A stretch of 64,000 bases of DNA. It comes from Mytilus edulis. Lineage: Eukaryota. This document shows, one piece after another, positions 2,501 to 61,300 of the stretch. The stretch is taken from assembly GCF_963676685.1 (NCBI RefSeq), contig NC_092346.1, forward strand, positions 39,432,001-39,496,000. Direction: 5' to 3'. Position 1 is the first letter of the stretch, and every line of letters starts with the position of its first letter. Both the position numbers and the translations under genes were made by a program. The notes under the pieces were generated by a model. That model did no database searches. It was not told the DNA's origin and saw nothing but the letters and a program-made list of their open reading frames with translations.

Positions 2501-4270
2501 TTACTTTCCAAAGCTATTTGGATCAAAGTTTGCAGAAGGAGCCTTGTCCGGATCGAAGGTGCCTGATCCCATACTATTTGGGGAGAATGATCCCGCTCCC
2601 ATGGAGCTTGGGTTGAAACTTCCGGATGGGACACTGTTCGGATTAAAACTTCCAGCTCCAAGACTACTTGGGTTGAAGGATCCAGCTCCTAATTTATTTG
2701 GGTCAAATGTTCCAGCTCCAGAGTTCGGGCTGAACTTACCAGCTGACATCTGATTAGGATTGAAACTTGCTGTGCCATTCGTATTGAACATGCTCAATGA
2801 TGCTAAAAAAGAAAAATAGTTCATTTCAGTACTATGGGTACCATATAAATTGCGCCACCTTATGACAACTGCGTTGCAAGTGATCGGTTTCGATTTTATC
2901 TTGAAAGAAATAAATATGCCACATCTACATGTAGTCAGAATATTTGCATTTCAATATTAGCTAGTAGGAACTGGCCGTCTCAAATTGAGTTTCCTGGCGA
3001 CAAGTAACTTCGTAAGGTGCAGAAGTTGTCGGATTATATATATCAAAAATATGTTCGTAAATCTTCAAATGAAATACCGTATCTCAATTATACACAACTG
3101 GTTTTCGTTTTCGTTTTTGTTTTCTTTGAATTTCATCTAAGGAACTACTGGTACATATATATTGATTTTAATAATTATCATTTCTTAATAATTTCTAATC
3201 TGATTAGATCAGACCATTTGCATTTGCAAATAGGTAAGGAAATTTAAAAAGGCAAATATACTAACTCCAATGGAATATAAGAAAACCGAAGTTGGGGAAA
3301 AAACAACTTTAAACGTTACACTAAATAGTAAAAATCACCAACAAAATAACGAACTCCAAGGTAAATCCATAAAGGGGGGAGTCCAAAAAAAGTCCCAAAC
3401 AAAATCAAACACTGACTTAATCAATCCACGAAACTAATGGAAATTAGCAGTCATATTTCTGACTTGGTACAGGCATTTTTTTTTTTAAAATAAAATGGTT
3501 GTTTAAACCTTGCTTGTAACTAGTTAAACTTCCCATTTGTATGACAGTTTATTGCTCCATTACATCGATTAAAGATTGTCAAAGTTCTATTTCGAGTCTA
3601 CTTGGAATTGGCTGTTGGGTGAAGTTTTATGCACATATTTCAGCTAATTTAAAATTTTCTTCCTTTTTATTTTCATTTTATAGAAGGAATAAAAACTTCG
3701 GTTGACTTAGATGAATGTAAAGAGCAACCGTTTCAGCAGTGTAAAGTAAGTAAGTAAGTAAATTATTGATTATAGTGACATGTGTACATTATGTATAGAT
3801 TATAAACATATAATATATGATAAATATTAATACACCCGGCCCAATGGAACTATAAGTCACCTCAAATAAAATAAAAGTGTACATGTTGATTTATGATAGG
3901 AATGTTCGGTTTGGAGGAATTTGAAATACTTGCATTTTGTTAATAAAGAGGAACGTTTTTATCAGAATATAATGGTACTTATCTATCAAATTTAAAACTA
4001 ATTGTGATGAAACTTGTAATTAAAAAAAACTGTCAATGCAAATAGCCTTTTACAAAAATTTAAAAGATTGACGAGATTGTATATATAACCGGAGAAATCA
4101 CCGAATCACCCTTGTGCCTATACATTCCAAAAAGTAAAAAACTTTTGAATTTTAACCCGCCAACATTTTTCGTTTGTTATATGTGTTCATAAAGTAAAGA
4201 AAGAAGAAAATAGATTCTTACCACAATAGCATGTAGGAATGAAAACTGTTAAAAATATTAACAAATTCAT
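2501..4270 (-). CDS. G1: secreted ~116-aa protein made of 10-aa GAGSF[DNS]Px repeats, ending NSFGK-stop
   Basis: Exon1 4270-4222 (MNLLIFLTVFIPTCYC, signal peptide, G|gtaag). Exon2 2802-2501 after a pyrimidine tract + ag, phase 1 in frame (ASLSMFNTNGTASFNPNQM...FDPNSFGK*). Nine F-[DNS]-P motifs; AATAAA overlaps the stop. Confidence 0.85.
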
Positions 4271-10685: not shown

Positions 10686-11572
10686 TTATTTTCCAAAACT
10701 ATTAAGCTTGTTTGGATCAAAGGTACCACTTCCAGTACCGCCATTAAGTTTATTCGGGTCAAAGGTACCAGTTCCACTTCCACCACTACCAAAACCAGTT
10801 CCAGAACCGAAACCTCCAGTTCCACTTCCACTTCCTCCAAATCCAGTTCCGCTTCCGAAGTTGTTTACTTTATTAGGATCAAATGTTTCAGTTGTCCCAG
10901 ATGGAGCAACAGTCGATGCGGCAAATGTGGTCATGGAGCCTGCAAATGTTGACATGGAGCCGAATCCACTGCCTCCAAAGTTCTGGTTCAAAGCGTTTGG
11001 ATTAAAACTACCCCCTGCGCCTGTTCCAAATCCACCACTTCCGGCCGCGAAACCACCAGTACCAAAGTCCTTGTTTAGAGCGTTCGGGTCAAATGTCCCA
11101 TCTAAAAAGGAACATATTTATACATTTAATGATAAACTTTCTCAAAATCTTTTTCACATACCATATTAGACAACCTATGTTGAAGTATTCTCATCTTAAA
11201 GTCTCAAAGTAGGAATATCAGGCCATAAGTTCATATCATATATAATCATTCCAAATAAATTTTTGACAGGTAAAAAATATGATAATGAGTCAATTATCTT
11301 TTGCTCCGTTGCACTAAAGTATATAATATACCTTGAATATTATTACTTGAATTTCAAATTTTAAATTGAAGACATTTATATCAAGTGTATAGTTACACAT
11401 GGATTTGATTAATGACATAATGTTGTAGAAACCCAAGGCTAGTATTTTCACGAAAATTTAATTCTATTCAATCTTTGACTTCTTTTCATCATATAAATTT
11501 GATATGCTTACCAGATAGTGGAGCCGACAGACATGCCGGTAAGAGACAAAGAAGAGCTAACCAACCCTTCAT
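10686..11572 (-). CDS. G2: secreted ~158-aa Gly/Phe/Ser-rich FDPN-repeat protein, ending NSFGK-stop
   Basis: Exon1 11572-11512 (MKGWLALLCLLPACLSAPLS, G|gtaag). Exon2 11101-10686, phase 1 (DGTFDPNALNKDFGTGG...TFDPNKLNSFGK*). Five F[DN]PN motifs, FG-rich linkers and a central Thr-rich stretch. Confidence 0.88.
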
Positions 11573-18775: not shown

Positions 18776-21700
18776 ATGACAGTTTTTACCATCTTTGTTG
18801 GAATTCTAGTATCGGGTATGTATTTTAGTGTTGTTTTTTTTAACACAGGATAATTTTGAGAAAACCATTTTTGTGTTTTCGTGAATTACTTAAACTTTCA
18901 TTTATATTGGTGAATAATTATTCATAAAAACACAAAACTTTTTACCACTCTAAGGCTATATTGAAAAACACTGGTTTACGACAATCGTTAAGATCTATAT
19001 TTTGTAAATGTATTATTTTTCCGAGAGAACACATGGGGATACTCGCCGAACGAGCTTTGAAACCTCTCCCCTTGCAAAAGTGTTTGCTGGAATTCTGCTG
19101 GATATATCGAATCCGCAATCCTGATATTCCCACTAGCATCATTCGTTAAAAAAAAAACTCATTAAGGAACAATGCCGAAATTTTTACGCAATGTGGTTTG
19201 ATTGCCAAAAGGACAACTACACAACAGAGTTCAAATAAAGCGTATTAAATCAACTATAGACTCAAACAGTGATCCTAACCCATACCTTGTAGTCAGGTTT
19301 CCGACATGACAAAACATGAAACATTTTAATCGAAAAAAAACTCAATGGTCTGATTCACGTCGACTCAATTCGAAAAACAAATATTACATACAGCAACCAA
19401 CGACAACCACTGTATAACTTTCTATATATTCTAATTTGCTGTCGAAATTGATTTTCATCTTGTGTCCGATCCTACCCTTTTTATGCTTATTTGATATCAT
19501 CAATTTCAAGTAAATCGTATTGTTCTTTTAAGTTACTGGAGCGTTCCTAGTAATTCTAAGAAGTGAAAACAGTAAGTTAACATGTCGGCAACTCAATGAT
19601 TGTAACTAGAAAAGAATCTAGATAGAAAAAAAAACGTACTATGTTAAAATACTACATTTAAATGTATTTCACCGAATACAACTAATTATCTTTGCAGGAT
19701 GTTATAGTTTTTCACTACCAGGTCTGCAAAATGTCCAGACAGATGATAATTTCACAAAAACTTTTGGAATTATACCAGGAAAAAGCACATACAAAAAGAC
19801 AGATCCAAATCATTCAATCAACACAGAACAACTTGGGGAACATGTACTCTCATCCCAGGAAAAAGTTTCCACTTCCGTCTCAAATCACGGTAGTCTTGCA
19901 ACAACGCTGAATCAACTATCTGGTATGTCTGCACTTCAGTTGCTGAAAATTCTAGGAGTACAACTTGGAAGTAATGCGCCTCTCAACATCAATACAAACG
20001 CCATCATCCATCGCCTGCCACAGCAACAAAACAATGTTCCAAAGAAGCAACATTATACGGTAGAACCATTGAAACCAACAATGAAAACACTTTCAAACTA
20101 TGGACAAAAAACTGGAAGTTTTATGCCTACTGATAACAACGTCTTAAGTACACCCCGCCCACCACAGCAAATGAGCAATGCTGGAAAGTTCAATACTCAG
20201 CAACAATTGAGTCCAGTTTTCATGATGACGTCAGGAATGGGTGAACAAAGCTTCCCTGATACGTCTTCAATTCAACATCCATCTGGTTCTAATCATGAAG
20301 ATAATAAAGCAAAATTGTTTGACCCTGATGCACTGATGCAAGAAATGATGAGCTCTTCTTCTTCATCACTAGGTGCTGGGAAATATATGGTAAAACAGAA
20401 TGTTTCTCCACAAAATTGGGCACCTAATCAACAGAAAAATATTAAAACGAATACCAAAAACAGTCCTGGCATGTTTAATCCTATGCATGGTCAAACATCT
20501 ATCAACTTCAACCCTGATTCATTCAACAACATAAAAATGAATTTTCAACCAGATGCACTCTTGCTTTCTGTTAATAAAGGGACACCGCATATTAGTAACA
20601 AACTTTCATATGATCCTGATAAACTTAACAACTACTATGGAAAGTTTAAACCTGGACAAATGTTCCAAGTTGAAGATATGAATACACCGCTACCACCAGT
20701 ACATCAAAGTTTATTCAATGCCGACACTTTAAACAAAAAGTTGATGAGCAGTGCCAAAAAGTCAGATGACCCAAATCCGAACAATGAAAACACATTAGCT
20801 TCATTGCAGTCCGAAATTGTCCCGCAACCGTCATTGAAGAAAATGTCAGGTTTTGTGCCTGGCTTACTTTTTCCTGGGTTTAAACCTGATAATGACGAGC
20901 TTGGGAATCACTTTTCGGAATATGACACAAACTTTGTAGAAAGAGCAGAGGAAAGTAAAAAAAGTATCAAGCATAGATATGCCTTTGTAGATATGTTATC
21001 AGATTTACCAGCAGAGCCTGACCATTCAGTTAACCCGGGAAACCTTACAAATCAAACTGCACTTGCACCAACTAGCCAATCACAGACAACCATTACAGCC
21101 ACTATGGATACTACAACTCAAGGGACTACTTTTGTGTTCACAACTTCAACTGATAGCCATGAAAACCATAGTGAATCCAGTAAATTTATGCCTGCTCAGT
21201 CAAACCACCCTCAAAATGGATTTGTTCCTGGGTCTTTGACAGGAGATGGGCGAACATTACAAATGATGGTAAATAAAGGAATGTATAACCCTAACGTGGT
21301 CAATCAGCAGGCTTTCTCAATGAATAATATTCAAAATACAGGATCATCAAATATCAACAATAACACAACGCATCAGACGTCGAATAGTTTTGGAATGATG
21401 TTTAATTTTAATCCTTCATCAGGTAACCAACCAAAAATCAGTTTCAACACTAATCAGCAAATAGGAATGGATGGTTCAAGTGGGTCGACGTCAAACAACT
21501 ACAATACATTTTATGATCCAAATAAAATAAATCAAAATTCATATATTAACCCATTCGACAAGGCCCAGACGAACATGAATAACATGTCAACAGGGCAGTT
21601 TGATAATTCACAATTCTTAGGAAATTTTGACGCAAACAAGGTTAATATGGGGATTATTGGAAATTCAAAAAATAGTACGCAAAATAGTATGAATTCTGGG

Positions 21701-22300
21701 TTTGGTGGACAATTTAACCCAACAGAAGTAAATAAAGCATATTTTAATCCAAATGTGGTAAATAAAGAGAGAATTAACTTTAACCCTTCTAAAATGTTGG
21801 AATCTAATGCTGGCTATGACAAGAAAACAGCCGAAAGTTATACATTTGATCCGAATAAAGTCAATGACTTACATGTCAATTTTCTTCCTCCTTTTCTTCA
21901 AGACAATTCAAACTCAACTGCAGGAAACAGTTCAGGTTCTGGATTTATCCCGGGTCTTCTGTCTGGAGGTAAAGATGATAGTGGTGTATTTGATCCTAGT
22001 AAAATGAAGGCTGGCATGTTGTTTAATCCAAACGCAATGATGAATACGAACAAAAATACGACAGAAAATGGCGGCATCTCAGATAAAAGTCAAACGAATA
22101 TGATGTTTAGTCCTTCGGCTATGATCGGTAACATGAAGGGTTTGATATCGGGAGCAAGTTTTGATCCAAATGCAGTAAACAAAGTTAACATGCATTTCAG
22201 TCCTAATGAAATGATGAAACAAGTCCCTGGCAACGTTGAAAGGACATCCAAGACTGATAATCCTATAATTGGTCAAGGAAGCGATGAGAAAGTAAAATAA
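18776..22300 (+). CDS. G3: secreted ~880-aa Asn/Ser/Met/Gln/Phe-rich protein with many F[DN]P motifs
   Basis: Exon1 18776-18815 (MTVFTIFVGILVS, G|gtatgt). Exon2 19698-22300 is in frame with the 791-aa ORF and extends it 5' (GCYSFSLPGLQNVQ...). Signal peptide MTVFTIFVGILVSGCYS; repeated FDPNKVN / FNPNVVN / GF[VI]PG motifs; AATAAA overlaps the stop. Confidence 0.9.
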
Positions 22301-25136: not shown

Positions 25137-26416
25137 TTTAGAAGCATCGTTTGCATCAATATCGTGGCAAGCACCATGCAGTGGCTTTATTTGAAATGTG
25201 ACAAATACTTAACTCTTACATTTTGAACCTTCATTAATTGTTTTCTTTTAGTTTTTTTTATGATACAATTCAAATAAATTATTTTGCTCCTTATCTTACA
25301 AATTCAAATTCAAATTCAAATATATTTTATTGCTAATCAAAGCGCCCACAAGGAGCAGAACAATCAACATTAATTACATACAAATAAATGATTACAAGTG
25401 ATTCAATATGATTAAGACACAAGCACAGTGTTTAGTAATATAACTAGGTTAAAAAAGGGGGGTCACTGGGCATTACTATATCTATATATCATTTAAGGAA
25501 AATTTTCTGTATGAGGATAAATTTTCAAATAATTCTCCGAGTTTCTAGAGTATGAAAATATCTTTAGAGGACATTAGCCAAATAAATTGTGATTTAATAT
25601 CTAAACCACTAATCATTTTTTACATGACCAGATTCAAAACTACCCGACATCCTTACCATAATAATTTTAAGTTGCAAAACATAATACAAATCCCGAACAT
25701 CAACCTAGAAAATAAAATTTGTATAGCTAAACATTTTAAGTCAGGAGTTTTGCATTGTAATTGAAATCGGTTTGAATAATTTGGTAGAAATTAAAACTTG
25801 GTTTCCAGTATAATCGTATTAAAAGTTTGGTCAACAGTTCCCGTATTGTACCACTTAAAGCAGATATTCATATGCTACATTCTGATGCAAGCCTTACCCA
25901 TTCGTTACAAATTTTACTAGCATAGTTTTCCGATTGGTCTAATGCACTGAAGACGGTGCATGTTGTGTTACAGTTTGTGAAAACGATTTTAAATTACAAG
26001 TGAAAAAAAAATATAATTTTTCCATCGTTATCTAATTATTACATATTTCATTAACTCTATATATTTTTATTTGCCAAAAAAAAAAACTTGGTTTATAAAA
26101 TTTAGATACACCATCCTTTTAACGAATATAATGACTTCGCGCTCCAAGATCAGACAACTTTTGTGCAAACGAAGTAGTGATTAGTGAAAACATGAAATAC
26201 AAGTTTGATAGCCGATTTCATGATTTTGTGACATGAAAATTTTTTCAGTTTTCACATAAATTTCTTTGTGAAGATAAGTAAGGGTTGAATGATCCCATAT
26301 CAATTCCACCTGCCGAAAGTATGTTATCGAAGACATGAACTTTTGATACGAGTTCTCACCTGCGACCTTCAAATATTAAAATAATCCTAAAATTTCATTC
26401 ATAATTCACACCGAAT

Positions 26417-29110
26417 ATGGCGTGGACAACGGTGATATTGTCGACATTATTGGTCAGCCATGCATTCGCCATTAGTGGTAAGTTTATATTTTTGGAAGGA
26501 AATTTCATGCTGAACGTAAACAAAAGGGAAAACCCCAAAAGTCTTTAAACAAAATATTATTAAAAAAAGTTCATTGTTTCTATTAGATTTTTGTGACCAT
26601 TCCCTTACCTTTGAAATTAATTCAAATTTAATATGATTTCGCCTGTACATGACTTAAAAAAAAATCACATAGCTTCTTTGATTCACATCTATAAGTGAAG
26701 ATTCATCGTTATACATTTACATGAAGTCATAGTAGTATTTATTTGTTCAGTTCATTACTAAATAATGTTTTGCTATTCTAAATTTTAATTGTTCCAACTA
26801 ATTTAAGCCTTCCTTATTTCAATTAGAAATTTCGTTTTTTTTTTTTTTTATCAAAGTTTAGATCAAAATAGGCTCAAATGACAGATAAAAAACAGAAACG
26901 GACGGTTCGGATAAAAGAACATGGTTACGAAAATATGCCACAACATATTAAATCCATAATAATCGAATTAAAAAAATCGTAATAAAAAATTATTTATAAT
27001 GAGACTCAGTGAGATTACATGGTAAAAGCAGTTTGAAAATGCAAAAAACAAAACATATACGATATGTTGACGAATGACAAATGCGTTTTTAAACCGTTGG
27101 TTTTCCCGTTTGAATGGTTTTACACTAGTAATTTTGGGGCCCTTTATAGCTTTTTGTTCGGTTACAGCCAAGGCTCCGTCTTGAAGGCCGTACATGGACC
27201 TATAATGGTTTACTTTTATAAATTGTTAATTGGATGGATGGTTGTCTCATTGGCACTCACACCACATCTTCCCATATCTATTAAATAGCAAAATACAAAA
27301 AAATATAAAACATGTATAATACTAGACTAACTTTAACGATGGAAGTATTTTTTTTATTTTTATGCTTTAAATCATTATAATAGGTACGAAAAGACTTCCC
27401 GAAATCGCGTGATTTTTCGCTAGTTTATACAAGTTTTTTTTATTTTCACGGAAATTTGAATTAGAGTTAAAATGTCATGTCAGGTGGTAATCTTGCAAGT
27501 TCTAATTAAAGCTTTAAGTTTATGCCCTTCATTTTCATTGTGTACGTACTTTCAAAATGCCTAGACCTTACTAAAAAAACAACCTAGAAGGATACATTCT
27601 TTTTAACAGAAATGTTATCAATATTTTCATTTCTTTTCAGTGCGACAAGCAAACAGCACATCCGGGGGAACATCAGGTGGGGGTTCTGGAGGAGTGACTC
27701 AGACTGGTGGAGGTTCTGGTGGAGTGATACCAAGCAGTGGAGGTTCCGGTGGAGTTACCCAGAGCGGTGGAGGTTCCGGTGGAGTTACTCAGAGTGGAGG
27801 AAGTTCTGGTGGTACACCAGGAGGTTCCGGTGGTAGCTCCAGTGGATCAGCATCACAGAATATTCAACCTCCTCAGTTTTTGTTAAATCCATCACAGTTT
27901 CTTGGCGGCGGAAGTCAGCAAAGGTATTTAGATACCGAGATTTTCTTACCAAACACATGGGTCTGGCAATAGTGCATTTGATCAATAGAACATAATGACT
28001 TGCTATGTTGTCATATTTTCTCAAATAAAAATATAGTAGTCTAATATTTATGGTGCCACACGTGGAGCAGAATCTTCTTAACTTTCCGGAGCACAGGATA
28101 TCACCCCTACTATAAATGAGTTAGAATAACCCTTCGATGTCTTTCGACACTCAATTATAGAATTGAACGAACTGAATAAGAACTATCATTTATTATACTG
28201 TTGTATTTCAGTTCTAGCGGAGGAGGGTCTAACAGCAGTGGTAGTGGTTCCAGTAGTAGTTCTGGTGGCGGTAGCAGCAGTGGCGGTGCCCAAATTCCAA
28301 ATTTTGATCCAAACAAAGTCAACCAAATACAAGCCAGTTTTCTAGATCCATCAAAACTGCAGCTAGGATCAGGCGGAGGAGGGGGCAGTGGTTTTAACCC
28401 CGACCAGATCAACAGCATGTTATTTAATTTCCTGAACCCTAGTCAAATGACAGCAGGGAGGCGTATGTATTCCATCTTTATTTATGTTTTTGTAAATTTT
28501 AATCCAAAAAAATAACCCAATTACACATCTAATTCCTGATTCAATATTATACGATAGCTGTAATGCGCAATTTACTGTATTATTTAATTTTTATTAAACA
28601 GGTAGACGACAGACAAGTCAAAGTAGTTCCGGCGGAAGTAGTGGTGCTAGTTCCGGCGCAAGTAGTGGTGCTAGTTCCGGCGGAAGTAGCGGTGGAAGTT
28701 CAAGCAGTGGAAGTCAGCCACCAAACTTCGACCCTAATAAGGTAAACCAGATACAATCCAGTATGTTAGATCCTTCCAAGTCACAGCTGGGTTCTGGTGG
28801 CGGTGGCGGAGCTATGTTTAACCCAGACCAGTTCAACACAATGAAGTTTAATTTCTTTAACCCAAAAGCACAAACTAGTGGCGGAGGTGGTAGCAGCGGT
28901 AGCAGTAGTGGAGGAAGCCAGCCACCAAAATTCGACGCAAATAAAGTTAACCAATTACAAGCCAACATGTTGGACCCATCCTCATCAAAATTGGGTCAAA
29001 GTGGGGGAAGCGCCGGTGGATTTGATCCAGATCAATTCAACTCCAAAACATTCAACTTCTTTAATCCACAAAACCAATTAGGAAAGAGAGGTATTATGTC
29101 ATTTATATAA
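26417..29110 (+). CDS. G4: secreted ~367-aa precursor with Gly/Ser spacers and three ~54-aa FDPNKVNQ modules; G-RRRR-Q and G-KR processing sites
   Basis: Exon1 26417-26477 (MAWTTVILSTLLVSHAFAIS, G|gtaagt); exon2 27641-27923 (VRQANST..., phase 2 end); exon3 28212-28462; exon4 28602-29110 (...NQLGKRGIMSFI*, AATAAA at 29113). All junctions GT-AG and in frame. Confidence 0.88.
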
Positions 29111-29593
29111 TCAATAAAATTTCATAGAAAGGAAAATGTTTCGAACATGTAAGTTAAAATTACAAGTAAATACATAATCAGAAGGAAGAAATTCAAATTC
29201 TTTATTATAAATAGTGTGATGTGTTGCTATGCATTTCATTTCAATGCACTGCTGTCACCCAGATATATAAGAAAAGAACAGTACCTCAAATCTTTAAAAA
29301 AACAAAACATATTCAAAACATTGGCATCCAGAAATGCTCCTGGCATCCAGAAATGCTCCAAACATCGATGTTGTCTTTATTTTACATGTATTATATACTT
29401 ATGAGTTGAATTGTAATAGCTAGCCCGTTGTGCTTCTTTTTGTTTCATTTTGAATAGAAATTTAGGTCTCGATAAAAAATCGTTTTGTATTTTCTGTTCA
29501 ATTGATTCGTAACTTGTCTATACTCAAATGATTTTGAACCTGAGATATGATATGGATGCTTCCATCATTTAAAATATGAGGTTGGCATCAAGA

Positions 29594-29892
29594 TTTTTAT
29601 GCCCCACCTACGATAGTAGAGGGGCATTATGTTTTCTGGTCTGTGCGTCCGTCCGTCCGTCCGTCTGTCTGTTTGTCCGTCTGTCCCGCTCCAGGTTAAA
29701 GTTTTTGGTCAAGGTAGTTTTTGATGAAGTTGAAGTCCAATCGACTTCAAACTTAGTACACATGTTCCCTATGATATGATCTTTCTAATTTTAATGCCAA
29801 ATTAGAGTTTTTACCCCAATTTCACGGTCCACTGAACACGGAAAATGATAGTGCGAGTGGGGCATTCGTGTACTGAGGACACATTCTTGTTT
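29594..29892 (+). mobile_element. Short Helentron/HINE-like element
   Basis: TTTTTATGCCCC...GGGGCAT left end, (GTCC)n microsatellite, GGGGCATT plus short hairpin and CTTGTT right end. Confidence 0.7.
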
Positions 29893-30511
29893 CTATATGT
29901 ATCGCTAGGTTTTCTCTCGTTTACGTATACATGGTATATCGAATGTTTAATTGTATTCAGATTATATAGGAAAATGAACAAATTTACAGACATGGATCTA
30001 GTACTTTTGCAATCACACCTAATAATACTTTATACTTCTCTATGATATGTAACTAACTTATTATCAGAATGCTCAAATTGAAAGATTTATCATTTGGAGA
30101 ACGTTTACTCATTTCACAATTTTCTTGTCGGAAATCTGTTTCAGAATTTACAAAAAAGGTAGAAGATTTAAGAACGTAGATGGTGTATAGCCCTTTTCGC
30201 GCGCATTTCACCGCCTGTTTTCAAATTTGATGTACCCATTGACATGTCTTCGTTACCAAACAAATAAAAGTGTAAAATAAAAATTCGTTAATTATCCGAT
30301 TAAAAATTTCAAAACAAATTTTAACCTATGTGGTTGGTCCTTATTGACTTGCTCGTATAATTTATATACTAATGCTTAAATCTATGTTTATAATCTTTAT
30401 ATTAAGTACTTAATTTTTTTAGTCCTTTATAGGATTGTAACTTTTACTTTCTGTCTTTAATAGGGTTATAATATTTACAAGTGTAAGTACTTTAAAAGGT
30501 CAATGAAACAA

Positions 30512-30800
30512 GGTTTTGCACGTGTTGGTAAAAGTTATTTGTGCGTGCATTAATGGAAGCAGGCGTGCACATGTTGGGAATAAGTAATTTGAACATAATG
30601 GCTAAGGGATAACTTATATGCACGTGTTGGTAATTATTGATTGATTTATTGTTGTGTAAGTCCAGCAGCAAATATTTCGTGCATCATTATGGACAACGTA
30701 TTGGTAATGAGTGATTATATGCGCAAAGGATAACTCATATGCAAATGTTGGTAAAGGGTAGCTTATTTGCACGTGATGGTGAAGGGTTATTTGTAGTGGC
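30512..30800. repeat. Degenerate ~29-bp minisatellite (TTATTTGCACGTGTTGGTAAAGGG-like)
   Basis: Recurrent TGCACGTGTTGGTAA / TGCAAATGTTGGTAA / TGCACGTGATGGTGA units. Confidence 0.5.
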
Positions 30801-32200
30801 ATACATTTTTGATGGTTGAACTTCAAATCATGTTTATTTTTATTTTTTTTAAATTGTGGTGCTAAATCTATGGCTGCAACTTCCTAAGGGGTTGGCGAAC
30901 TTCTATAGTTTTAAGTGTTAACACCGAAACATGTGTTACCTAGTCTACTGAAAGGCTATTTTGCTTTGAAGTCAAGAATGAACTTTGAAAAATGGCTGCT
31001 TTTGCATTGTATTGATATTGTATGATACTTATTTAAGTGCACGCGACACTTGTTTCTGTTTTGAAAAAATAAATATGCATAAGAAGTTTGAAAGCATCAA
31101 AACCAGGAATGCTGTAACACACGTGTCAACACTGTTTAAGGTCAATTGACTTTGGTTTGTACTTCAGTGGCTTGAAGTAGATTATCCGTACTCTATAAAT
31201 CTAAACGAGACGCTTAAGTACATGAAAAGTTAAAGCTAGCAGATGCGCAGTATACGTCAATGAAACAACAAACAAACACCACAATAACGAAAACAATATA
31301 CGTAACATACATTCTGACACAAGTAAGACTTTAATACCTTTCATAAGAACAGCGGTTTTTTTTAATTCGACAATAGGCGTTTCGATTCAACAACATTTAA
31401 TTTAGAGAGGTGTGGCCAATGTTTGCTTCACTAAGAAGCTCGAAATCTGGAAGATGATGGAGCCTAGAAGAATACAAAAAAGAAAAGAATATATGATGCA
31501 ATTTTAAAACGATTTTGCATTACTTCGGCTGTTTTCTGCTCTTTGGTCGGGTTTGTTGACTCTTTGACACATTCCCCTTTTCCATTCTCAATTTAAGTAG
31601 GATAAAAAGTCAAATGAGAAAAAAATCATTTTTGATCCCAACAGCTGTGATGTGCAGTCGTGGTTACTATTTAACTGTTGAAATTTTAAAACCTTGTACA
31701 ATCCTGAACCTGAAATAAGTGTTTTAATTACTAGTATTACTGCAATATTACTAAGTTGCTAACTACTTTTTATTTTTTTCAAGGTATTGATAAGTTTATA
31801 CCGGGGTCGCAATTTTCAATTTTTCAATTAAAATCAATGTTCTTTCGTCATAAATTTTACTGTGACAATTTGTATAACACCCCCGCCACAAAAATACCAA
31901 AACAAACAAACTCTAGCAATTTAAAAGAAAACAAAATTCACAGATAAGCAAATATCTCAACGCCCTTAAAAAATACTAATAAAACTTGCACTCACAACAA
32001 TTAAGAATATAACTGAGTTTTTCAGATGTGAAGATTTTCATAAAGGCAACAGACGTCATGTGGTGGCAATGACTCATTCTGGTTCTCTTAACCAAGCGAG
32101 CTTAAACCTTTTCTTAAGCTTCAAACCACAGTGTACATGCGTTTTTGTTCAGTATCACTATCACGGCCCTCACGGTACAATCATATTTCAAAGTTATTTA

Positions 32201-35917: not shown

Positions 35918-38900
35918 ATGTACACACCGAAGCCAGTGTGTTGGTGGTATGTTGTAATGGTATCATTGATTTTATTACTCAGAAATGGTATGTTGAAAAT
36001 GGGGAAATTATGACCACTTCGTATGCAATATACCTTAGTTTTGAGTAGAAATTAATGATCATTGGGTACTTTTAGTATTTCTAATTCTGAGTTTAATATA
36101 CTGATTGAAAGACACGTTTGATATACCAGTAAATAAAATTGAGGTGTTTTAATAGTGTTTTTGTATGTAATATTATCATTCAAAAAACATTACAGATGTT
36201 TTGATATATTGCGTTTCAAACGCTTTAAAAAACTTCTAAACTAACATGTATGCTGAATATTAGAAAAGTAAGAAAAACGATATAACAGTCAGAAACAACC
36301 ATTATAAGCACAGATCACAAGCTTATTTTGCTAGAGGAGTCTAAAAACTTGTTTTATTGTTTTAATATTATCAAACCATACAGAAGTCGGTTCATGATGG
36401 CTATTACTGTACAGTCACGCAGTGAAGTACGATTGAAATATTACATTAATATTTTTGTTTTCAATTGTCATACAGGAATGATTGCGATTTGTGTGAACTT
36501 ACGTTAAAATTAGACCATTCATAATAATAGGATATAGTTTAGTAACGATCAAGGTCAACTAGATCACTATCCTTATCTTATACTGATAAAATAATTCTAT
36601 TTACCCTTATTTAGGACTAAATATATTTATCATGGCATCGTTAAATACAATATTTACATTTTTGTGTATGGTCAGTTTGACCAAAACCCGAAATGGTGAG
36701 TCTGAATTTGTCACCTTCAACAATTTCGCGATGAAATTCTAGACAAAAATCTTATTTTACGTATTTATAATTTATGTAAATTGGTTATTGAGAAAACAAG
36801 TGTCACGGATGATATACCAAGGCAAACCACTGTTCAACTCCCAAACACTCTTTAATATGCATAATCAAATCTCTAAATGGTGGGCTTTGATTACGTGAGC
36901 AAAATGCATATCAATCTAATATTTATAACCTTTCAGATCACGTTTTAAATAAATATAGTCAATATTTATATTTTTTTTATGAAAAAGAGAAGGGAGATAT
37001 CAAACAATTGCAATCTATACCATAAGTCCACCTAACACAATACATAAAACTAAACACCTAAAAAATTCTATTAAAGCACGAAGAATAGGAGGATAATACT
37101 AAGGGAACATTCATAAGATGGAAATAAACAAACCGACAATGCCATGGCAATACATGAAGAAAAAACGACGAATATCCGACAAATCAACAAATAGAAATAG
37201 ACATAAAAACAAAGATGTGGTATGATTGCCAATGAGACAACTCTCCACAAGAAACCAAAAATGACACAGAAATTAACAACCATAGGTCACCGTACGGCCT
37301 TCAACAATGAGCAAAGCTCATACCGCATAGGCAGCTATAAAAGGCCCCGAAATGACAATGTTAAACAATCCGAGAAAACTAACGGCCTTATTTATGTAAA
37401 GTCTACGCAACACGAACTCACTAAAATGAACTCAGAACATAGATGTCCCGGAACGTATGCGAAACTTTAATAATCAAGAATGCTTAAGTTGCATCTCGTA
37501 ATGTCAAATCAACACAAAAGCTCCTAGGTTAAATATATTTTATATTTTATATCTAAATTTACTTATTTCTAGATAGTATTTATTCAATGTTGCTGGATCA
37601 TCTTATATTATTTTTCAATACAATTTTTACAGTCCGACAAAGTTTTAATCCTAATTCAATGATGGGAAGTTTTCTTGGTGGATCATCGTCCTCGTCTTCT
37701 TTGTATGGAAGCTTCAACCCTAATAAAATGATGTCACAATATACAGGCGGGGGTTCTAGTGGAAGCATGTTTAACCCTAATGCCGCGATTGGAGGAGGTC
37801 AACAGCCACAGCAACCTGCAAACAGTGGTCAAAGTTCACAGCAGAGTCAGTCATCCCAATCTACAAATAGTCCTCCACAATCAGGAGGAAGTCAGTCATC
37901 TGGAACTGGAACGTTTGACCCGAATGCTCAGATGTCATCGGGTAGTTCCGGTGGCACCTCTGGTGGAAGTCAATTTGGAGGCATGTCTAAGTCATCAGGG
38001 GGATCCGGTGGCACCTCTAGTGGAAGTCAATTTGGAGGCATGTCTCAGTCATCAGGAGGATCCGGTGGCACCTCTAGTGGAAGTCAATTTGGAGGTATGT
38101 CTCAGTCATCAGGTGGCTCTAGCGGAAGTATGTTTAATCCGAATGCCATGATAGGTGGTCAGCAACAACCAATGAACAGTGGGCAAAAATCACAACAGAG
38201 TCAATCTTCCCAGTCGACAAATAGTCCTGCACAATCAAGTCAGTCATTTGGAACTGGTATGTTTAACCCAAATGCGCAGATGTCATCGGGTGGATCTGGC
38301 GGAACTTCTGGTGGCGGTGGAATGTCGTTCAATCCGAATCAGATGACGTCTGGTGGTTCACAACAAATGAGTGGAGGCGGTGGTGGTGGTGGTGGTAGTA
38401 GCAGTTCAAACACAAATCCAAAGTACGACCCGAACAATGCTGTAAATACTGGTGCCAAGTATGACCCTAATGCTGCAAACAGTGGAATGAGTGGTTCTTC
38501 TGGTGGAGCAAAACCATCTTTTGCCAACGGAATGGGGTTTAATGCAAAACAACAAACGCCTGGTGGGCAACAGACTACGATTCAACCAAGCCAAAAATCC
38601 GGATCACAATCCGCGTCTAGTTTTGGTCAAGCATCTGGTCAGCAACAACAATCGGCAGCATCAAGCTTTGGACAAGCTTCAGGTCAACCATCACAGTCTT
38701 CAGCATCAAGTTTTGGTCAAGCTTCGGGTCAACAGTCGGGTTCTGGAAGTCAACAGCCTCAATCTGGCTCCGGTAGTCAACAGCCTCAACCTGGCTCCGG
38801 TAGTCAGCAGCCTCAATCAAATTGTGGACAGCAAGGCTCTTTTGATCCAGTAGCAGCCAATACAGGAGGAACTTCTGGTTTTAATCCTCTTAACCCACTT

Positions 38901-41900
38901 TTAGGTATGATTGATGTCAATAAGCTAATAATTATGCAAATTAGACAACTAATGGTTTCGGTAAAACTATAACTGACAAGATAAATCAAATTAAAAAAAA
39001 AATTATGCAAACTTTTCCATAAATACTTAGATATTTAATTTCTGACAAAAAGTAAAATAACATAAATACTGAACTCAAAACGGAAAGTTCGTCATCGAAT
39101 GGCAAAATCAAATGCTAAACACACCAAAGAATCGAACACAAATGTCTTTTCCTGACTTCGTACAGGCATTCTCAAATGTAGAAAATTGTGGATTGAACCT
39201 GGTTTATAGTGCTAAACCTCTCACTTGTAAAGGAATTTTTGTATTTCAACATACTTAGCTGTAATTACATGCTGTAACGCAAATGTATTTTATGAACGTT
39301 AACTTTCAGTTGAGAAAATATAAATGAATAAATATTTTTTCCTTAACATTTTTTTTCCTTTACATATATCTAATACATGATGCACACTTAGGCTTGTTTA
39401 GTTGATTTTCTTATATTTTATAGGAGGAAATACTATGAGTAAAATCATGGGACCGAAAACAGGATGTGGTAAATATATACAATAACATTATCTGATAAAT
39501 ACAGACTGCATGGTTCATCTGATTTCGACAGTATCTAATCGTATTTAATAGATGACCAAATTCATTCAAAATATCAGTTTTTGGAGGATAAAAAATTGTC
39601 TGACTGGGAAGCCAATTTTCTCAGAATTTCATAGCACGGCCATTTTAAAAATTGGTCTTTATCAAATAGGTTTCGTGTTTAGGTTTACCCAAGATTGGTA
39701 ATACAGATACCGTCAGAATTATCACTATTGTTGTTACTAGATTTGATATATAAAAAGTAAAATCACAAAAATACTGAACTTAGAGGAAAATCAAATCGGA
39801 AAGTCCATAATCACATGGCAAAATCAAATAACAAAACGCATCAAAAACGAATGGACAAGAACTGTCATATTCCTGACTTGGTACAGGCATTTTCAAATGT
39901 AGAAAATGGTGGATTAAACATGGTTTTATAGGGTTAATTCTCTCACTTTGATGACAGTCTCATCAAATTCCGTTATATTTACATTGATGCGTTAACTAAA
40001 CAGACACAATAAATAAAATGGTCAAAAGATGGGTACATCAGTCATCATAAATGTTACAGGTAAAAGTAATGGTGGCTTTGATCCTGGCTCCGTCAATATG
40101 CAACAAGCCAAGCTAGGAACCAGCTTAAACATGTTTGGCGGCGCTAAAGGAGGAGACCCAAGTAAAATGGATGCAAGTTCGTTAATGGGTGGATCCTCTG
40201 GAATGACGAGTGGAGCTAATTCAGTGATGACTCCAGGTGGAAGCAGTGGTGGGAGCACTGGGGCCAGTAGTGGAGGGGGAATGAATTTGAATCCAATGAA
40301 TATGATGAGCAGTATGACGGGAGGATCCGGAAGCGGAAGTGGGAGTGGTACGAATCCCATGAACGCAATTATGGGAGGAACATCTGCTACATCCAGAGGC
40401 GGAAGTAAGAGTTGATTTCTTAATATTCTAAAGGTTACAACTAAAAAAAGGAAATTTTTAAATGAATGTGTTTGCTTAATTTTCGCTCAATGCTTTGCGC
40501 TTTGGATTTTTCGGTATATTTTTATATGGTTGAATGATTATAAAATGCTTCATGCAGCTTGGTGTTGTAATAAGTCTTATAAAATATGCCTTGGCATTAT
40601 CTTTTCAATATTCAAATCTTTTATGCAGATATATTCCTTACTTGTTTTTGGTGCACATTAATAGTAAAAGAAAATGAAAAAAACAAACAAACAAAAAACA
40701 AAAAAACATCATAAACAGCAAAATAAGTAAACAGAGAATATAAAAAATAAAAGATAATGCCCCCTAAGTCATATGTTATAGGACTAGCTTGTTTTGTGGT
40801 TTGCAAACGCTTCTTTTAAAACTTTTCGACACTATTTATTATAGACAGTGGCTCTACAAGTCAAAGCGGAGGACAGACGGGTGGTAATCCGTTGGATCCT
40901 TTAGGGGCGATGATGGGTAGGTAGAACACTAATCTATATCAGCCGGTATCTGGCATATCAAATTGCAAAATATCAAATTGTCAGTTTGTATATAGGTTTT
41001 TGGTAAAATTGAATACGAGCAACATTAACATCAAATGTATACCATGGTGCAGTTGCCAGATAAAATTTAGTTTACTTATCTCTTTGTTTCAAAATAAATT
41101 TAAAGACCTAAATTCAAGTAATCTGTCAAAATATTGTCGTGTTAACAATTTTATGCATTTTTATGCATTTTTAATGCATTTTTATACTTATATATATTAT
41201 TTTCTAACTTATCTGTAACCTTTGTACTTGCATGGTTTTATGAGAATAAACTATCTATCTAACATTTGAACCACTTTATTTGAAAAAAAACCAACGTATT
41301 TTCGATTTTTTTAAAAGCTCTACCATGCCTCTCCACCTATTAACCAATTAACCATACGTTTTGTTGCAGCCCTGAACTTTTGAAACTTTCTATTTATCAA
41401 ATGACAGCTGTTATAGCAGATCATTGAAGTTTTATTTTCATTGAAATTTATAATTCTGTTTTATTTTCAATTCACCTTTACGCTTTATGACACTGGTTTT
41501 TTTTTGTATTTATTTTCATAGCACGAGGCTTGTTACGTATTAGATTCAACATCTTTTATTTTGTTTTATCTGATTGCATTTCTTTTGTAACAGGAGGTGC
41601 CCAGAGGTTTGCAGGAGGGAGTAATCTGATGGACCCCATGGGTTTTATGAATGGTAACTTAATGAAGATTGGCTTCACTCTGCTTGATTTTTTATAAATC
41701 TAAAATATATGCAAATTTGTTTACCCAAAAAAATATGATTCAAAGTCTTGTTTTGTTATAATTTCAGATCATTTATATTAAAGTATCACATATGTATACA
41801 TGTACTTGAAAGTTTACTATTAAACGTTTGCTGCATTGATACAAAACTATACCTTTGGCGCAATATCGTAAAAAAATTAGACCCTGCTTGCCTTGTTTGC

Positions 41901-43935
41901 CCCCAAAACTGATCTAAAACATATAAAACATCGGTTTGGTAAACAGTTTGAAAACCATGTGAGAAGACAATCTTTTGAAAATTTGAAGCAATCCTAAATC
42001 AGAGAAACAATTTATTGCTGTTCCTAATATACATATTTCTGATTGGTTTATGACAAAATCATATCGGATTATTTTCAAAAATACGTAAGCACACATCCAA
42101 CACAATTTTGTCCAACAAGTTATTCTTCATGCAACACCTGACATAGATTTAATTTTTAATCAATGAATGTTCTGTGTATTTCAGGAGGCGGACAAACTGG
42201 TAAATTTGGAAACCGGTTTTCCGTGCCGTTAACAGGTACGTACAATTTAACAATATCTGTTTACCATAGTTAAAATGTAAAAGATACAACATACTAAATA
42301 ATTGCATCGATAGATATAATATAATAATTAATTTTATAAATTATAACTTTAAACATGAAGAAGACGAAGTTTTATGGATTGCAAAAAAATACGGTTGCAC
42401 AATGAATATGCCACAACAATTGGAAATAAAAATTATTTTTATAAAACTGATAATTTTCAAGATACAAGATATCTCTATCTCGTTTTGCAGACGTTAACTT
42501 ATCAATATCGGGTTGATACTATATCGCCAGTGACGTAGCTCAGACAGGTGCAACTCGAATCCCAAGATGTCAACCAAGTTAATATTTTGTGTATATTTTG
42601 TTATTGCAGGAAGATCTTTGCAGACAGAAACGGGTAAGTAATCTTGTTTTATTCAAACATTTACAAATATATAGATTAAAAAAATTAAGAGTCTGCAGAT
42701 ACCAAGAGCCAATCAAAATCCATAAGTCGAAGTAAAACAGACGCACGGCTTAACGTTAAAACGACGTTAAAAAGAAAATACATAACAAATTGACTTAAAT
42801 AGATTTGGATCGTTTTTATAAAATGTTAACAAAATTAAAAAAAAATTAATTTAAATGTAATTATTAAGAATGGAAAAGGGGAATGAACCACATAATTTAC
42901 AGGATAATTTCATTTGACACATAACAGTTTGGCAAACACTAATTAGGATTATTGAGAAACTTGTTTTTGCCTTAGGTGTATTTAACCTTTTAAAACATAC
43001 TACAGCCCACACAACACATGACAGACGTATTTGATTAAATTGAAAATAAACTCGTCATAGATACAAGTATTAAAATTCTATATTTGCGCAAGATGCGCTT
43101 TTCGTCTACTAAATACTCATCATTAAAAAGTCAATTACAGTTCGAAGTTGAAGAGCATCGAGAACTAAAGTTTCCTTAACATTTGCCAAATACAGCTAAG
43201 TTAATCCATTCCTGAGTTAAAAAAGCATTTATATTTCAAAAATTCGAAATTTCGTAAACAGTTAATTCATAACTATGACCATATCAATGACAATTCATTT
43301 CAACACATGAATGCTGACTACTGGGCTGGTGATACCCTCGGGGAATAAAAAATCTCCACCAGTAGTGGCTTCGACCCAGTGGTTGTAAATAAACTCATCA
43401 AAGATACTGGGATCAAAATTTATATTTGCGCCAAACGCGCGTTTCGTCTTCAAAAGAATCACCAGTGACACTCGAATAAAAAAATGTAAAAAAACCAAAT
43501 AAAATACGAAGTTGAAAAGCATTGAGGACCAAAATTCCTCCAAGTTTTGCAAAATACAACTAAGGTTATTCATTCATGAGTTAGAAAAGCCTTAGTATTT
43601 CAAAAATTCTAAGTTTTGTAAACAGTTAATTTTATTATAACCATACCAATGACAATTAATGTCTACACAGGAGTGCTGACTACTGGGCTGGTGAACCCCA
43701 CGGGGAATCAGTTGATAAACCGACTTTGAATATCAATAAGAAAATACTGCTATACAAGAAGATAAATATAGACTAAATTTGCATTATGTGATAAACTGCA
43801 AATTTATAAATAGAATACCTTTAATAGAATATCTGAAACAATAAAAGTCAACAATCACCATTACCATTACTTTTCTTTCTAGGGAAGGGTAGTTCCCTGA
43901 TGTTGGCTAGAATTTTACAACACTCAGCACCGTAA
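35918..43935 (+). CDS. G5: secreted ~663-aa Gly/Ser/Gln/Met-rich FNPN-repeat protein with a micro-exon tail
   Basis: Candidate exon1 35918-35987 (MYTPKPVCWWYVVMVSLILLLRN, G|gtatgt). Further exons 37633-38904, 39424-39468, 40060-40404, 40845-40916, 41594-41653, 42185-42235, 42610-42633 and 43883-43935 (...LARILQHSAP*, AATAAA at 43959). All introns GT-AG and phase 1. Confidence 0.82.
43044..43710 (-). mobile_element. Tandem ~343-bp retrozyme-like repeat (about 2 units) with degenerate hammerhead cores, inside the last intron of G5
   Basis: AAATAAACTC recurs at 43044 and 43387. Each unit has the HHR-like GTTTCGTC...TCA(T/C)CAG segment; the second copy reads CUGGUGA...GAAACGCGCGUU on the minus strand. 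Confidence 0.75.
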
Positions 43936-58279: not shown

Positions 58280-60839
58280 ATCAATAAACAAAGCTTCTCA
58301 CTGACTAGTATTTCGTTAGGTCAAGACGATTTTATGATAAAGCTACTTTTTTGGTGACTTAATGATAAAAAGCATAAAGCCTATAGTATTATACACGTAC
58401 GTCTGTCAAATAACTTAAAATATTTGTAGGAATTGTTCTTGCGATGAGATGACTCATACACCGACGAGGAAATTTCATTGTCAAATACATAATATGTAAC
58501 AATTTACCAAAAAAACAAATGACAGACATGAACCAACAACAACACAGAAACTACAGGCTCCTGACTAGGGACATACCCATTCATAATGTGGCGGGGTTAA
58601 ACAATGTTACATGTTTGAAGGCGCCAGACAGCCCCCTACCCTGGTTCAATGGTGTAACTATTGTCATCTGTCATAACTGACAACCAAAACGTAAAACTTT
58701 TACAGATATGATTTATCGTTTACCATTAAGAAACCTTGGTTTATAAATAAAAAAAAGGAACATGTGGTATAAATGCCAATGAGACAACTTTCAGTAAGAG
58801 CCCAAATGACACAAAAACTAACAACCATAACCATTCGGCCTTCAGCAATGAGCAAAGCTCATACCGCATGTCAGCCATAAAAAGCCCGTAGTTGAATCTT
58901 TGTAATTACGAATCCTCGATCAAAGAACTCCAGAAATCCTGCTAGGCAACGGCAGTTCCGGAGTAGGTTATTAAATTGGAGACATGTAATCAATATCTAG
59001 AATAAGTACGAATATTTGTGCATGAAAAATATAAAAAATATATAGGAACAGAAAATTAGAATTGGATCAATTCATTACACAAAATCACTTTATGCACTTA
59101 AAAATACCAAGCGTAAAGTAATAACGCTGCTTTCGTTGCTTTTATTACTCTTCTTGAAGTTATCGCTTTTGCCGTTGAGCTTCATTTGTGTTGTAATTTG
59201 TTTCTGGTTAAACTGCTTTAATGTTATCAACATGGTCGCTAAACATAAATATTTAATTTAAAGGCATCAACTTTATAGAGGAATTTGAATTCAGCGGATA
59301 ATGTTTGCTTCTGTGTCGGAATGTCTGCTAAAAGAAACAATTTTATTTTCCCTAGAAATGACAAATATATGACGAAAGTCGTTTACCAAAATATTCCACA
59401 GAGGTTGTAAGCCGAATAAATCTAGTATGATAATAGTCATCTAGATGATGTCAGTTTACACTAATTTAATTAAATGAATTATGGGGAAAGAAAAATAACG
59501 AAAATTCAAATTGGAAATTCTATATCAAATGGAAAAATCAAAAGCTTAGACAAATCAAACGAATGGAAAACAACTGTCATATTCCTGACTTGGTACATGA
59601 ATTTCGTTAACTAGAAAATGGTGGTTTTATTGCTAGTTAAAACTCTCACTTGTAAGACAGTCGCATAAAATCCATAATATTGACAACAATGTGTGAACAA
59701 AACAAACAAACATATTAGGTAAAATGTCAAAAACATGGGTACAGTAGTCAAAACTGTGTTATAAGCTTTATTACTGTAAAACAAACAAAAATGTAAAAAA
59801 AGAAATGGTAAACAATGTCAGAATCTACACTGCAATACCAACGTCGATTATTTCTGAAGTTGATACGGAATATTTATCAACAAGGTATTTGTATTTTCTG
59901 GCGAACCTTTTTTATAACCCTGGTTCATCTACATTCTGCTCAGGGATCGGTGAGATTTACTAAGTATGATTAGTAGCCGCAAGCTCTTTAATACCGATTG
60001 AGTTGGAAAATGTATACCCCATATGCAAGTGGAGACGCCATATTGCTACTTAGGTAGGGACAATTGATCATTTCACAATGAATTGTCTCGTTTGTCTTAT
60101 ATTCTGTACTGAGATGCCCGCTTATGTCAAATTTGAGGCATTAATTAAACAAATTCGTAAGAGTTCCGCGGAATCCAGTGTCTTTACTTTTTCTGTTAAT
60201 CGCAGGCTCAACAAAAACGAGGGAAAAAAATAATAAAGATATTCCTCTCGAGACTAACTTTTGATTGGAAGAAGCTTCTGTCTAAGTTTGGTAAATATCC
60301 AGGATAATTTATGAATCTAATAAATGTTTTGAAAACTTTAACTGCAGACTGTATGACATGTTAACTTGAAGAAAAATAAGACCATTTATAAGTCAAATAC
60401 AGATAAAAAGGTACGAAATTTTAACAAAATTGCCTACTAGATACTAGCTTATGTTCATAAACAAGCTTCTATCTAAGTTTGGTAGAAATCCAGGATAGTT
60501 TAAGAAAGTTATAAGAATTTCAAAAACGTTAACCACAGAGTGAATATAAGTTGAAGCCAACGACGGAATGTGGGATCGCTATGTCTCGCTTTTTCGACTT
60601 AAATCGAAGGATCGACATAAATGCGGCAAGGGAAGCCATGTCTGTTGTTTCTTTAATTTCTAGTTTTGGGCGATATATTAATGGAACCAAATAAAAAAAA
60701 TGCATTGGTAATGAAAAAAACCATCATCAATATATGTAAATGTGAAATAAAAGGATCTGGCTTCCTTGATCTTCTTGTTTTTGACAAGTTATGGAAGGAA
60801 CTTCGACTCATATAAAAATAAGGATAGGTCGACAAGAAG

Positions 60840-61300
60840 AAGGACACAGCTTGTGTACAAAGGAAACTATAGCTCATCTTGATTATCGTATCGACTAAGA
60901 GATGTATGTTCCATACGTAAGTGTTGCTGAAATGTTGATCAATGGAAATAGAAAGTTTACAGAGGAAGTTAAAATCATCTCTTTTGTCATAAAGTTTTGT
61001 TCGTAGCTGACTCCTATCGTCAATGTTTAGATGTAAGTCAAGATATGAAGCAGACTTATCTGTATCTATGGTATCCTGTATTTCAAGTTTGATGAGAAAC
61101 CTTTAACATTGTCACAAAACTTTGAATTGTTTAGTGAGAGGCATTATGAACATTGCGTAACGTAATTTTAAAGGATAATGCTAGCTTCTTTTCATTGCCA
61201 ATAAGAAGCTTCATATGAATGAAAGAAAAGTCTGCAGGGAGAGGATCACTGTTAGTTTGTCCTAAGGCATTTATTGTTTATTGAAAACAAGTCTTCCAAA
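60840..61300 (-). pseudogene. Penelope-like reverse transcriptase fragment
   Basis: Minus strand encodes LEIQDTIDTDKSASYLDLHLNIDDRSQLRTKLYDKRDDFNF, typical of the mollusc PLE RT C-terminal region. Shorter related fragments at ~53050-53170 and ~56100-56240. Confidence 0.7.

Follow-up and report, generated by a model that had tools for sequence, protein, structure and literature searches.

The question raised by this locus is whether G4, a gene of Mytilus edulis that carries copies of an FDPN module, encodes a precursor cut and capped in the manner of a prohormone, and what its products would be for. The window analysed is a stretch of 64,000 nucleotides of contig NC_092346.1 (positions 39,432,001 to 39,496,000, forward strand), with ~33% GC, within a 1.37-Gb assembly; its features are collected in Table 1. 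A first-pass annotation, made from the letters alone, had joined 26417-26477, 27641-27923, 28212-28462 and the frame from 28602 into a protein of 367 aa, and the RNA-verified model has 361 aa.

At least half of the sampled words were present in 20 of the 24 RNA runs listed (11 studies), and the RNA contigs of four runs (X11, X2, X5 and X24) were compared with the G4 locus. In three of these (X11, X2 and X5, from three studies) the exons of G4 are covered and introns 2 and 3 are not, so that they represent spliced RNA; the contigs of X24 (6% of raw reads) cover none of the G4 exons. Intron 1 is spliced in two of the three contigs, which creates the ISVR-Q join, and introns 2 and 3 are spliced in all three. 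At intron 3, X2 and X5 skip 139 bases bounded by GT..AG, and X11 has the same RRRR junction minus one 24-base repeat unit. The unit missing from X11 (28624-28647) belongs to a tandem repeat of exon 4, and its absence represents an in-frame length allele of the Gly/Ser spacer. Contig depth, a poor measure of abundance, was ~10-18 for G4 in the three covering runs. Exon 1 is preceded by an in-frame stop, and the N-terminus that it encodes has, by hydropathy, the hydrophobic core and A-F-A end of a signal peptide. Within intron 1, a short interspersed repeat (27089-27282) shows very high cover in all four RNA runs, arising from many other copies.

Table 1. Positions of G4, its modules and sites, and the neighbouring FDPN genes in the window.
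Feature	Position	Strand	Description
G1 second exon	2501..2802	-	F[DN]PN repeated as a decapeptide; true codons give a terminal F-G-K-stop; ATG 4270 in a signal-like exon
G2 second exon	10686..11101	-	F[DN]PN repeats; true codons give a terminal F-G-K-stop; ATG 11572 in a signal-like exon
G3 long frame	19622..22300	+	~15 F[DN]P[NS] motifs; no terminal G-K
G4 exon 1	26417..26477	+	Predicted signal peptide by hydropathy (residues 1-18, ends A-F-A), then I-S; phase-1 donor; joined to exon 2 in two of three contigs
G4 exon 2	27641..27923	+	VR-Q site (Gln 27646-27648), Gly/Ser repeats, FLLNPSQF motif
G4 exon 3	28212..28462	+	Gly/Ser spacer, module 1, G-R, first base of split Arg codon
FDPN module 1	28303..28440	+	46 aa, two 22-aa half-units; 85% identical to Ylistrum copy
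G-RRRR-Q site	28456..28612, interrupted by intron 28463-28601 (139 bases)	+	Predicted furin-type site with an amide donor before it and a pyroglutamate start after it; junction in three of three contigs
G4 exon 4	28602..29090	+	489 bases, both ends in phase 1; opens with RR-Q, followed by modules 2 and 3 and G-KR
FDPN module 2	28727..28864	+	Linker type, no basic site after it
FDPN module 3	28931..29068	+	87% identical to last Dreissena copy
G-K-R	29081..29089	+	Predicted amidation and cleavage signal after QNQL; within RNA-covered exon 4
G4 splice donor and intron start	29091..29110	+	Three of three contigs diverge from the genome at 29091
Candidate G4 exon 5	29970..29977	+	Predicted; would add G-K-stop; AATAAA 293 bases further on
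Predicted G5 signal exon	36615..36695 (36632-36695 from ATG 36632)	+	Ends R-N before V-R-Q
G5 main exon	37633..38905	+	Opens with VR-Q; F[DN]PN repeats, degenerate, set among spacers of Gly/Ser/Gln/Met

The earlier reading of the end of exon 4 as GIMSFI* was not borne out, as all three contigs diverge from the genome at the donor and exon 4 ends at 29090; we reject this tail as protein, the three RNA contigs showing it to be intron read-through. In each of them the match ends at 29091, one base into the GT donor (AGA G|GTATTA), with 46, 141 and 36 letters left over. Since the same alignment stopped exactly at the last matching base at intron 3, we take the extra base, a G, to be the first letter of the next exon, to which exon 4 of G4 splices from this donor. 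Besides the candidate in Table 1, starts at 30433 and 30464 (G-L-stop) were considered, among 18 acceptors listed. Exon 4 is also in frame with the acceptor at 36615, which lies just ahead of the exon predicted to encode the G5 signal, making G4-G5 read-through a possible candidate, and the oyster model likewise runs from G4-like into G5-like sequence. A direct splice from exon 4 to the second exon of G5 was rejected, because that exon starts with T and the contigs match G.

Once the exons are joined, ISVR-Q, MTAG-RRRR-QTSQ and NQLG-KR can be read as had been proposed, the first join being present in two contigs and the RRRR junction in all three. A junction that removes RRRR, named beforehand as the outcome that would speak against the proposal, has no corresponding acceptor in the three contigs (contigs drop rare forms). 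The tetrabasic site is formed only by splicing, as claimed, but this is ordinary and in itself unremarkable: a phase-1 intron lies in an Arg codon, and the read-through sequence already gives G-R-R on one side and R-R-Q on the other. Regulated creation of RRRR by alternative splicing was rejected, no variant junction being seen in the three contigs, and in-frame skipping from exon 1 to exon 4, possible on paper, was likewise seen in none of them.

All six Arg of the 361-aa model fall in VR-Q, G-RRRR-Q and G-KR. In shuffles of G4, RRRR appeared in 0 of 20000 and at least two G[KR]R in 21 of 20000. A predicted assignment of these sites to furin or prohormone convertases fits RRRR, formed at the spliced junction, and KR, which lies inside exon 4 of the mRNA; the first site, ISVR-Q, has a single Arg and fits neither the furin nor the dibasic consensus and, being monobasic, would be the weakest of the G4 processing sites. 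Established secretory-pathway chemistry makes convertase cleavage, amidation and pyroglutamate formation quite probable for G4, with cuts likely at G-RRRR-Q and G-KR and less sure at VR-Q. The two products with one and two modules that had been foreseen follow from the RNA-verified model; the C-terminal tail had been wrong, and its correction leaves the G-KR amidation signal untouched. The first predicted product (174 aa, 15.8 kDa, K2/D3) would carry one module and end in QMTA-amide, and the second (157 aa, 15.5 kDa, K8/D7) would carry two and end in QNQL-amide. Both would start with Gln, consist of 41-53% Gly+Ser, contain no Arg, Glu, Cys or Tyr, and have a near-zero net charge.

The module itself, present in three copies in G4, has 46 residues: a Gly turn connects two F[DN]P[ND] half-units of 22 residues each. 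Among 5000 shuffles, the score of one half against the other was matched 0, 3 and 76 times for the three copies. Relatives were found by sequence search in Dreissena, Ylistrum and Mercenaria, and the module matched 23 of 1.84 billion representatives, the named ones coming from Potamilus and Mizuhopecten (20 proteins looked up, most of them unnamed). The named relatives are bivalves throughout, and the absence of the module outside this group is weak evidence, since two of the three word searches scored only ~8000 candidates. In the mussel genome it was found in G4 only, besides one match at E 0.47. In a tree of the modules, built on 46 columns with P0016_m2 as a partial, mis-parsed row and leaving 16 of its 29 inner branches open, module 3 of G4 falls into a starred group alongside copies from Dreissena, Mercenaria and Potamilus, module types otherwise not separating.

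The processing signals recur together with the module. Among 40 module ends in 29 sequences, which are related and not independent and include many unspliced gene calls, with some basic sites straddling predicted donors, Gly plus at least two basic residues was found within 18 residues in 24, and a dibasic site lacking the Gly in none. Ten others are mostly of the Q-A-Q-S-G-G linker type followed by another module, two are truncated, and four have Gly and one basic residue at the model end, which may be donor read-through. P0007, P0026 and P0027 gave no parsable module end.

Uncharacterised orthologues sharing the module and the site pattern include Crassostrea CGI_10006774, Mercenaria XP_053389211, Dreissena DPMN_099867, Ylistrum LOC132562224, Mizuhopecten KP79_PYT10582 and Potamilus CHS0354_015533 and 015535; none has a functional name, and they differ from G4 in the number and order of modules (five in oyster, three in G4). 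R-Q starts recur in the Ylistrum, Mercenaria, Mizuhopecten and Potamilus proteins. The oyster protein, read by eye, is colinear with G4, with a signal peptide, R-V-R-Q (more Arg lying upstream of its VR-Q than in G4), the FLLNPSQF motif that exon 2 of G4 shares with the oyster and Mercenaria orthologues, a module and G-RKRR-Q; it continues with two modules, G-KR-VIH-KR-Q, two more modules, and G-KR-xxxxx-RR-Q leading into G5-like sequence. Mercenaria has G-KRRR-Q at the place of the G-RRRR-Q of G4. The oyster and Mercenaria models are thus colinear with G4 but fused to G5-like or G3-like sequence. The exon 4 unit is present twice in the oyster model, and an in-frame duplication of this exon would be allowed by its phase 1 at both ends. 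The unspliced relatives P0005 and P0006 read G-K-R and then M-Y by read-through, as in G4, so that the intron position after G-K-R looks old. In the scallop models P0002 and P0010, QSQL-type modules precede the exon-2-like and exon-3-like parts, an order unlike that of G4. On this comparison, the predicted processing architecture of G4 is well supported by conservation across bivalves.

The neighbours of G4 are degenerate tandem-repeat proteins of ~100-870 aa. Two further FDPN genes lie less than 10 kb upstream of the window, on the minus strand (L023, 256-2085 and 4449-4841); behind a signal-like exon their sequence opens with RR or KR, and it ends in G-K-stop or G-KR-TVK-stop. Together with G1 and G2 they make four minus-strand genes, each having a signal-like phase-1 first exon by a hydropathy filter. 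A terminal G-K or G-KR is found in four of the five neighbours with a readable end (three G-K-stop, one G-KR-TVK-stop; G3 has none), where composition would give ~1% each, the neighbours being paralogues and not independent. G3 resembles the N-terminal half of the Mercenaria model P0003, whose start is G3-like (34% over 119 aa). G5 had been credited with the same VR-Q start as G4, and it does read R-N-V-R-Q, but only on a predicted first exon (36632-36695). Several small downstream exons of G5, rich in Met and N-P-M motifs, lie at 39425-42240, and the end of this gene was not located. In oyster, CGI_10006775, adjacent by number to the G4 orthologue, is G1/G2-like, with KR-Q and a terminal F-G-KK (read by eye), and Potamilus has two module genes whose locus numbers differ by two, on contigs of the same length. 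From such ids and the fused models, the FDPN cluster looks syntenic across bivalves. Elsewhere in the window there is a C1q domain exon, a common bivalve gene type (61762-62199, minus strand; Pfam PF00386, E 1e-22), and by eye the frames at 60653-61102 (minus strand) and at L024 104-700 resemble LINE-type reverse transcriptase fragments. Downstream of the window (L024-L026) there are at least three tandem genes whose N-termini, by eye, are Cys/His-rich and B-box-like.

Searches of databases placed G4 in no known family. Pfam returned no family for three G4 exons and sub-threshold matches alone for three database relatives; the five weak matches among PDB sequences (best E 0.017) were judged chance, and the ESM Atlas gave no usable match for either of two queries. 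The AlphaFold2 model of module 1 had a mean pLDDT of 60.5 and a pTM of 0.21, with two low-confidence helices, and it had no Foldseek match, being too weak to be informative. Metagenome contigs gave 16 loci with 18-19-residue matches (E ~2e-4), treated as chance, and Rfam had nothing within 25500-31000. Main texts searched by module motif, relatives' accessions and topic yielded no relevant paper (figures and subscription journals could hold one). The module strings were absent from the searchable supplements of PMC5996578 (six files), PMC8398477 and PMC4944945, from those of PMC4200219 (two picture files unsearchable) and PMC3896809 (9 of 16 files covered); the supplement of PMC13190495 gave one unrelated match. 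Among the supplements covered, one on the nacre proteome of Pinctada and one on silk-like proteins showed no module string.

How the products would arise can be laid out step by step. Signal peptidase would remove residues 1-18, furin or a prohormone convertase would cut after the basic sites, and carboxypeptidase E would trim the basic residues so exposed; peptidylglycine amidating monooxygenase would then convert the exposed Gly to an amide, and glutaminyl cyclase would cap the N-terminal Gln as pyroglutamate. With less assurance, we suggest that cutting takes away every Arg and both end charges of the chains, that the Phe/Asn/Pro-rich modules may act as stickers on flexible Gly/Ser spacers, and that the chains might assemble together with products of the neighbouring FDPN-repeat genes. 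The composition of the products fits that of sticker-spacer proteins. Many module columns are 90-100% conserved, against 30-60% in the residues before the amide Gly, and the distance from module to amide varies from 5 to 13 residues. Because the predicted products are long and neutral, because conserved positions run the whole length of the module and thin out ahead of the amide, because the amide spacing varies, and because degenerate-repeat neighbours carry the same signals, we favour a matrix or gel role over hormone signalling. Bivalve precedents for the caps are the pyroglutamate of shell and ligament proteins (PMC13080008) and the amidation predicted for non-neural Mytilus peptides (PMC5577615). 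The reading of G4 as a spliced, single-copy bivalve precursor cut into capped chains that build a secreted gel or matrix has, in our judgement, an even chance of being right. Against it stand the modest contig depth and the one run lacking cover, which do not suggest an abundant structural transcript, the lack of module strings in the Pinctada nacre and silk-like-protein supplements, a module identity between distant bivalves that is high for low-complexity material, and the scallop precursors P0002 and P0010, which would release compact capped peptides of 55-61 aa with little spacer and a hormone-like look.

These same observations (the high module identity, the compact scallop products and the low RNA depth) keep alive the possibility that identical processing yields new large peptide hormones or neuropeptides, with the module as receptor ligand and the Gly/Ser stretches as spacers, which we regard as unlikely. 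Conserved modules repeated between G-KR and R-Q are the standard prohormone layout, the RNA signal is restricted as well as low, and the oyster orthologue, which sits in a SignalP-filtered set, passed an automated proneuropeptide candidate filter. Its id occurs in one of the six supplementary files of PMC6425005 (file 2), by file order Dataset S1, which that paper describes as the pool left by an automatic filter, with between 173 and 14,195 candidates for each species; there it is pooled, with no family assignment in the accessible part. This unclassified candidate list is the sole trace of the family in print that our searches met. The hormone reading is further weakened by the lack of a conservation peak at the amidated end with its variable spacing, by the absence of the motif from the text supplements of three neuropeptide surveys, including scallop and oyster ganglia (two picture files unsearchable), and by amidation signals common to degenerate repeat neighbours that are unlike ligands. 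The description of G4 as built like a prohormone therefore stands for its layout and its conserved sites, with hormone function less likely than a structural one.

It is improbable that G4 works uncut, as a full-length low-complexity secreted protein in which the clusters of basic residues serve as binding patches or merely arise from exon ends. The sites do lie at exon boundaries, a G-K or G-R at a model end can be G|GT donor read-through (as in the four uncertain cases of the 40 above), and cleavage is a prediction from sequence; yet all 24 dibasic sites have a Gly in front of them, spliced RNA contains the G4 sites as genuine codons, and the G-K codons that end the neighbouring genes do not belong to donors. 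Least probable is that the products, once processed, serve as exocrine effectors with a binding target such as mineral, microbes, gametes or particles (surface defence, pheromone or mineral templating), for which there are precedents in the accessible parts of PMC5577615 (Mytilus myticalins, which outside the nervous system combine a signal peptide with a dibasic site and predicted amidation) and PMC13080008 (LICP, a pyroglutamate-capped mineral peptide), since the G4 products are neither cationic nor acidic and their module is conserved and single-copy in this genome, against variable defence families.

Under the favoured reading of G4 as a source of processed secreted material, we tentatively propose that bivalves possess a syntenic cluster of FDPN genes, at least seven in number and so far undescribed, which uses processing and capping to switch on material assembly around an ancient 46-residue module; alternatively, that module would represent a new bivalve-wide hormone class. 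As judged from sequence, what is new is an uncharacterised precursor family and gene cluster with a prohormone-like layout, outside the known neuropeptide families tested. With 85-87% identity across distant bivalve lineages, no counterpart in Pfam, the PDB or the Atlas, and exact predicted end-caps, the module is directly testable. If structural, it adds a bivalve secreted-material family whose assembly is controlled by hormone-type processing; if signalling, a peptide hormone class has been missed in mussels, oysters, scallops and clams.

In comparison with known systems, G4 is like multi-copy neuropeptide and prohormone precursors in its signal peptide, repeated modules, G-[KR]R signals and Gln after the basic sites. 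It is unlike them in the length of its predicted products (157-174 aa, about half Gly/Ser), in its conservation, which is not concentrated at the amidated end of a short peptide, and in having no Pfam match; a match to known molluscan neuropeptide families was found neither in Pfam (three exons) nor in the three survey supplements. With the Gly/Met/Phe-rich ligament and silk-like proteins of molluscs (abductin, LMP), G4 shares a secreted, low-complexity, Gly-rich sequence with periodic aromatics. We know of no amidation-type polyprotein layout among these proteins.

The myticalins of Mytilus come close in another respect, being, in the accessible part of PMC5577615, non-neural secreted mussel precursors that have a dibasic site, close to which lies a phase-1 intron, and for which amidation is predicted. 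However, they are hypervariable peptides of 23-42 aa with more than 10% Arg and a pI above 11, whereas the predicted G4 products are long, conserved, Arg-free and neutral, and do not show the myticalin hallmark of a short cationic Arg-rich peptide with an anionic C-terminal extension. Among biomineral proteins, LICP is an acidic peptide of 10 residues, and the accessible part of PMC13080008 describes no FDPN module for LICP, Prismalin-14 or PPL3. According to the same source, pyroglutamate is known on bivalve shell and ligament proteins, and all three of these secreted bivalve material proteins carry it at the N-terminus, as predicted for the products of G4.
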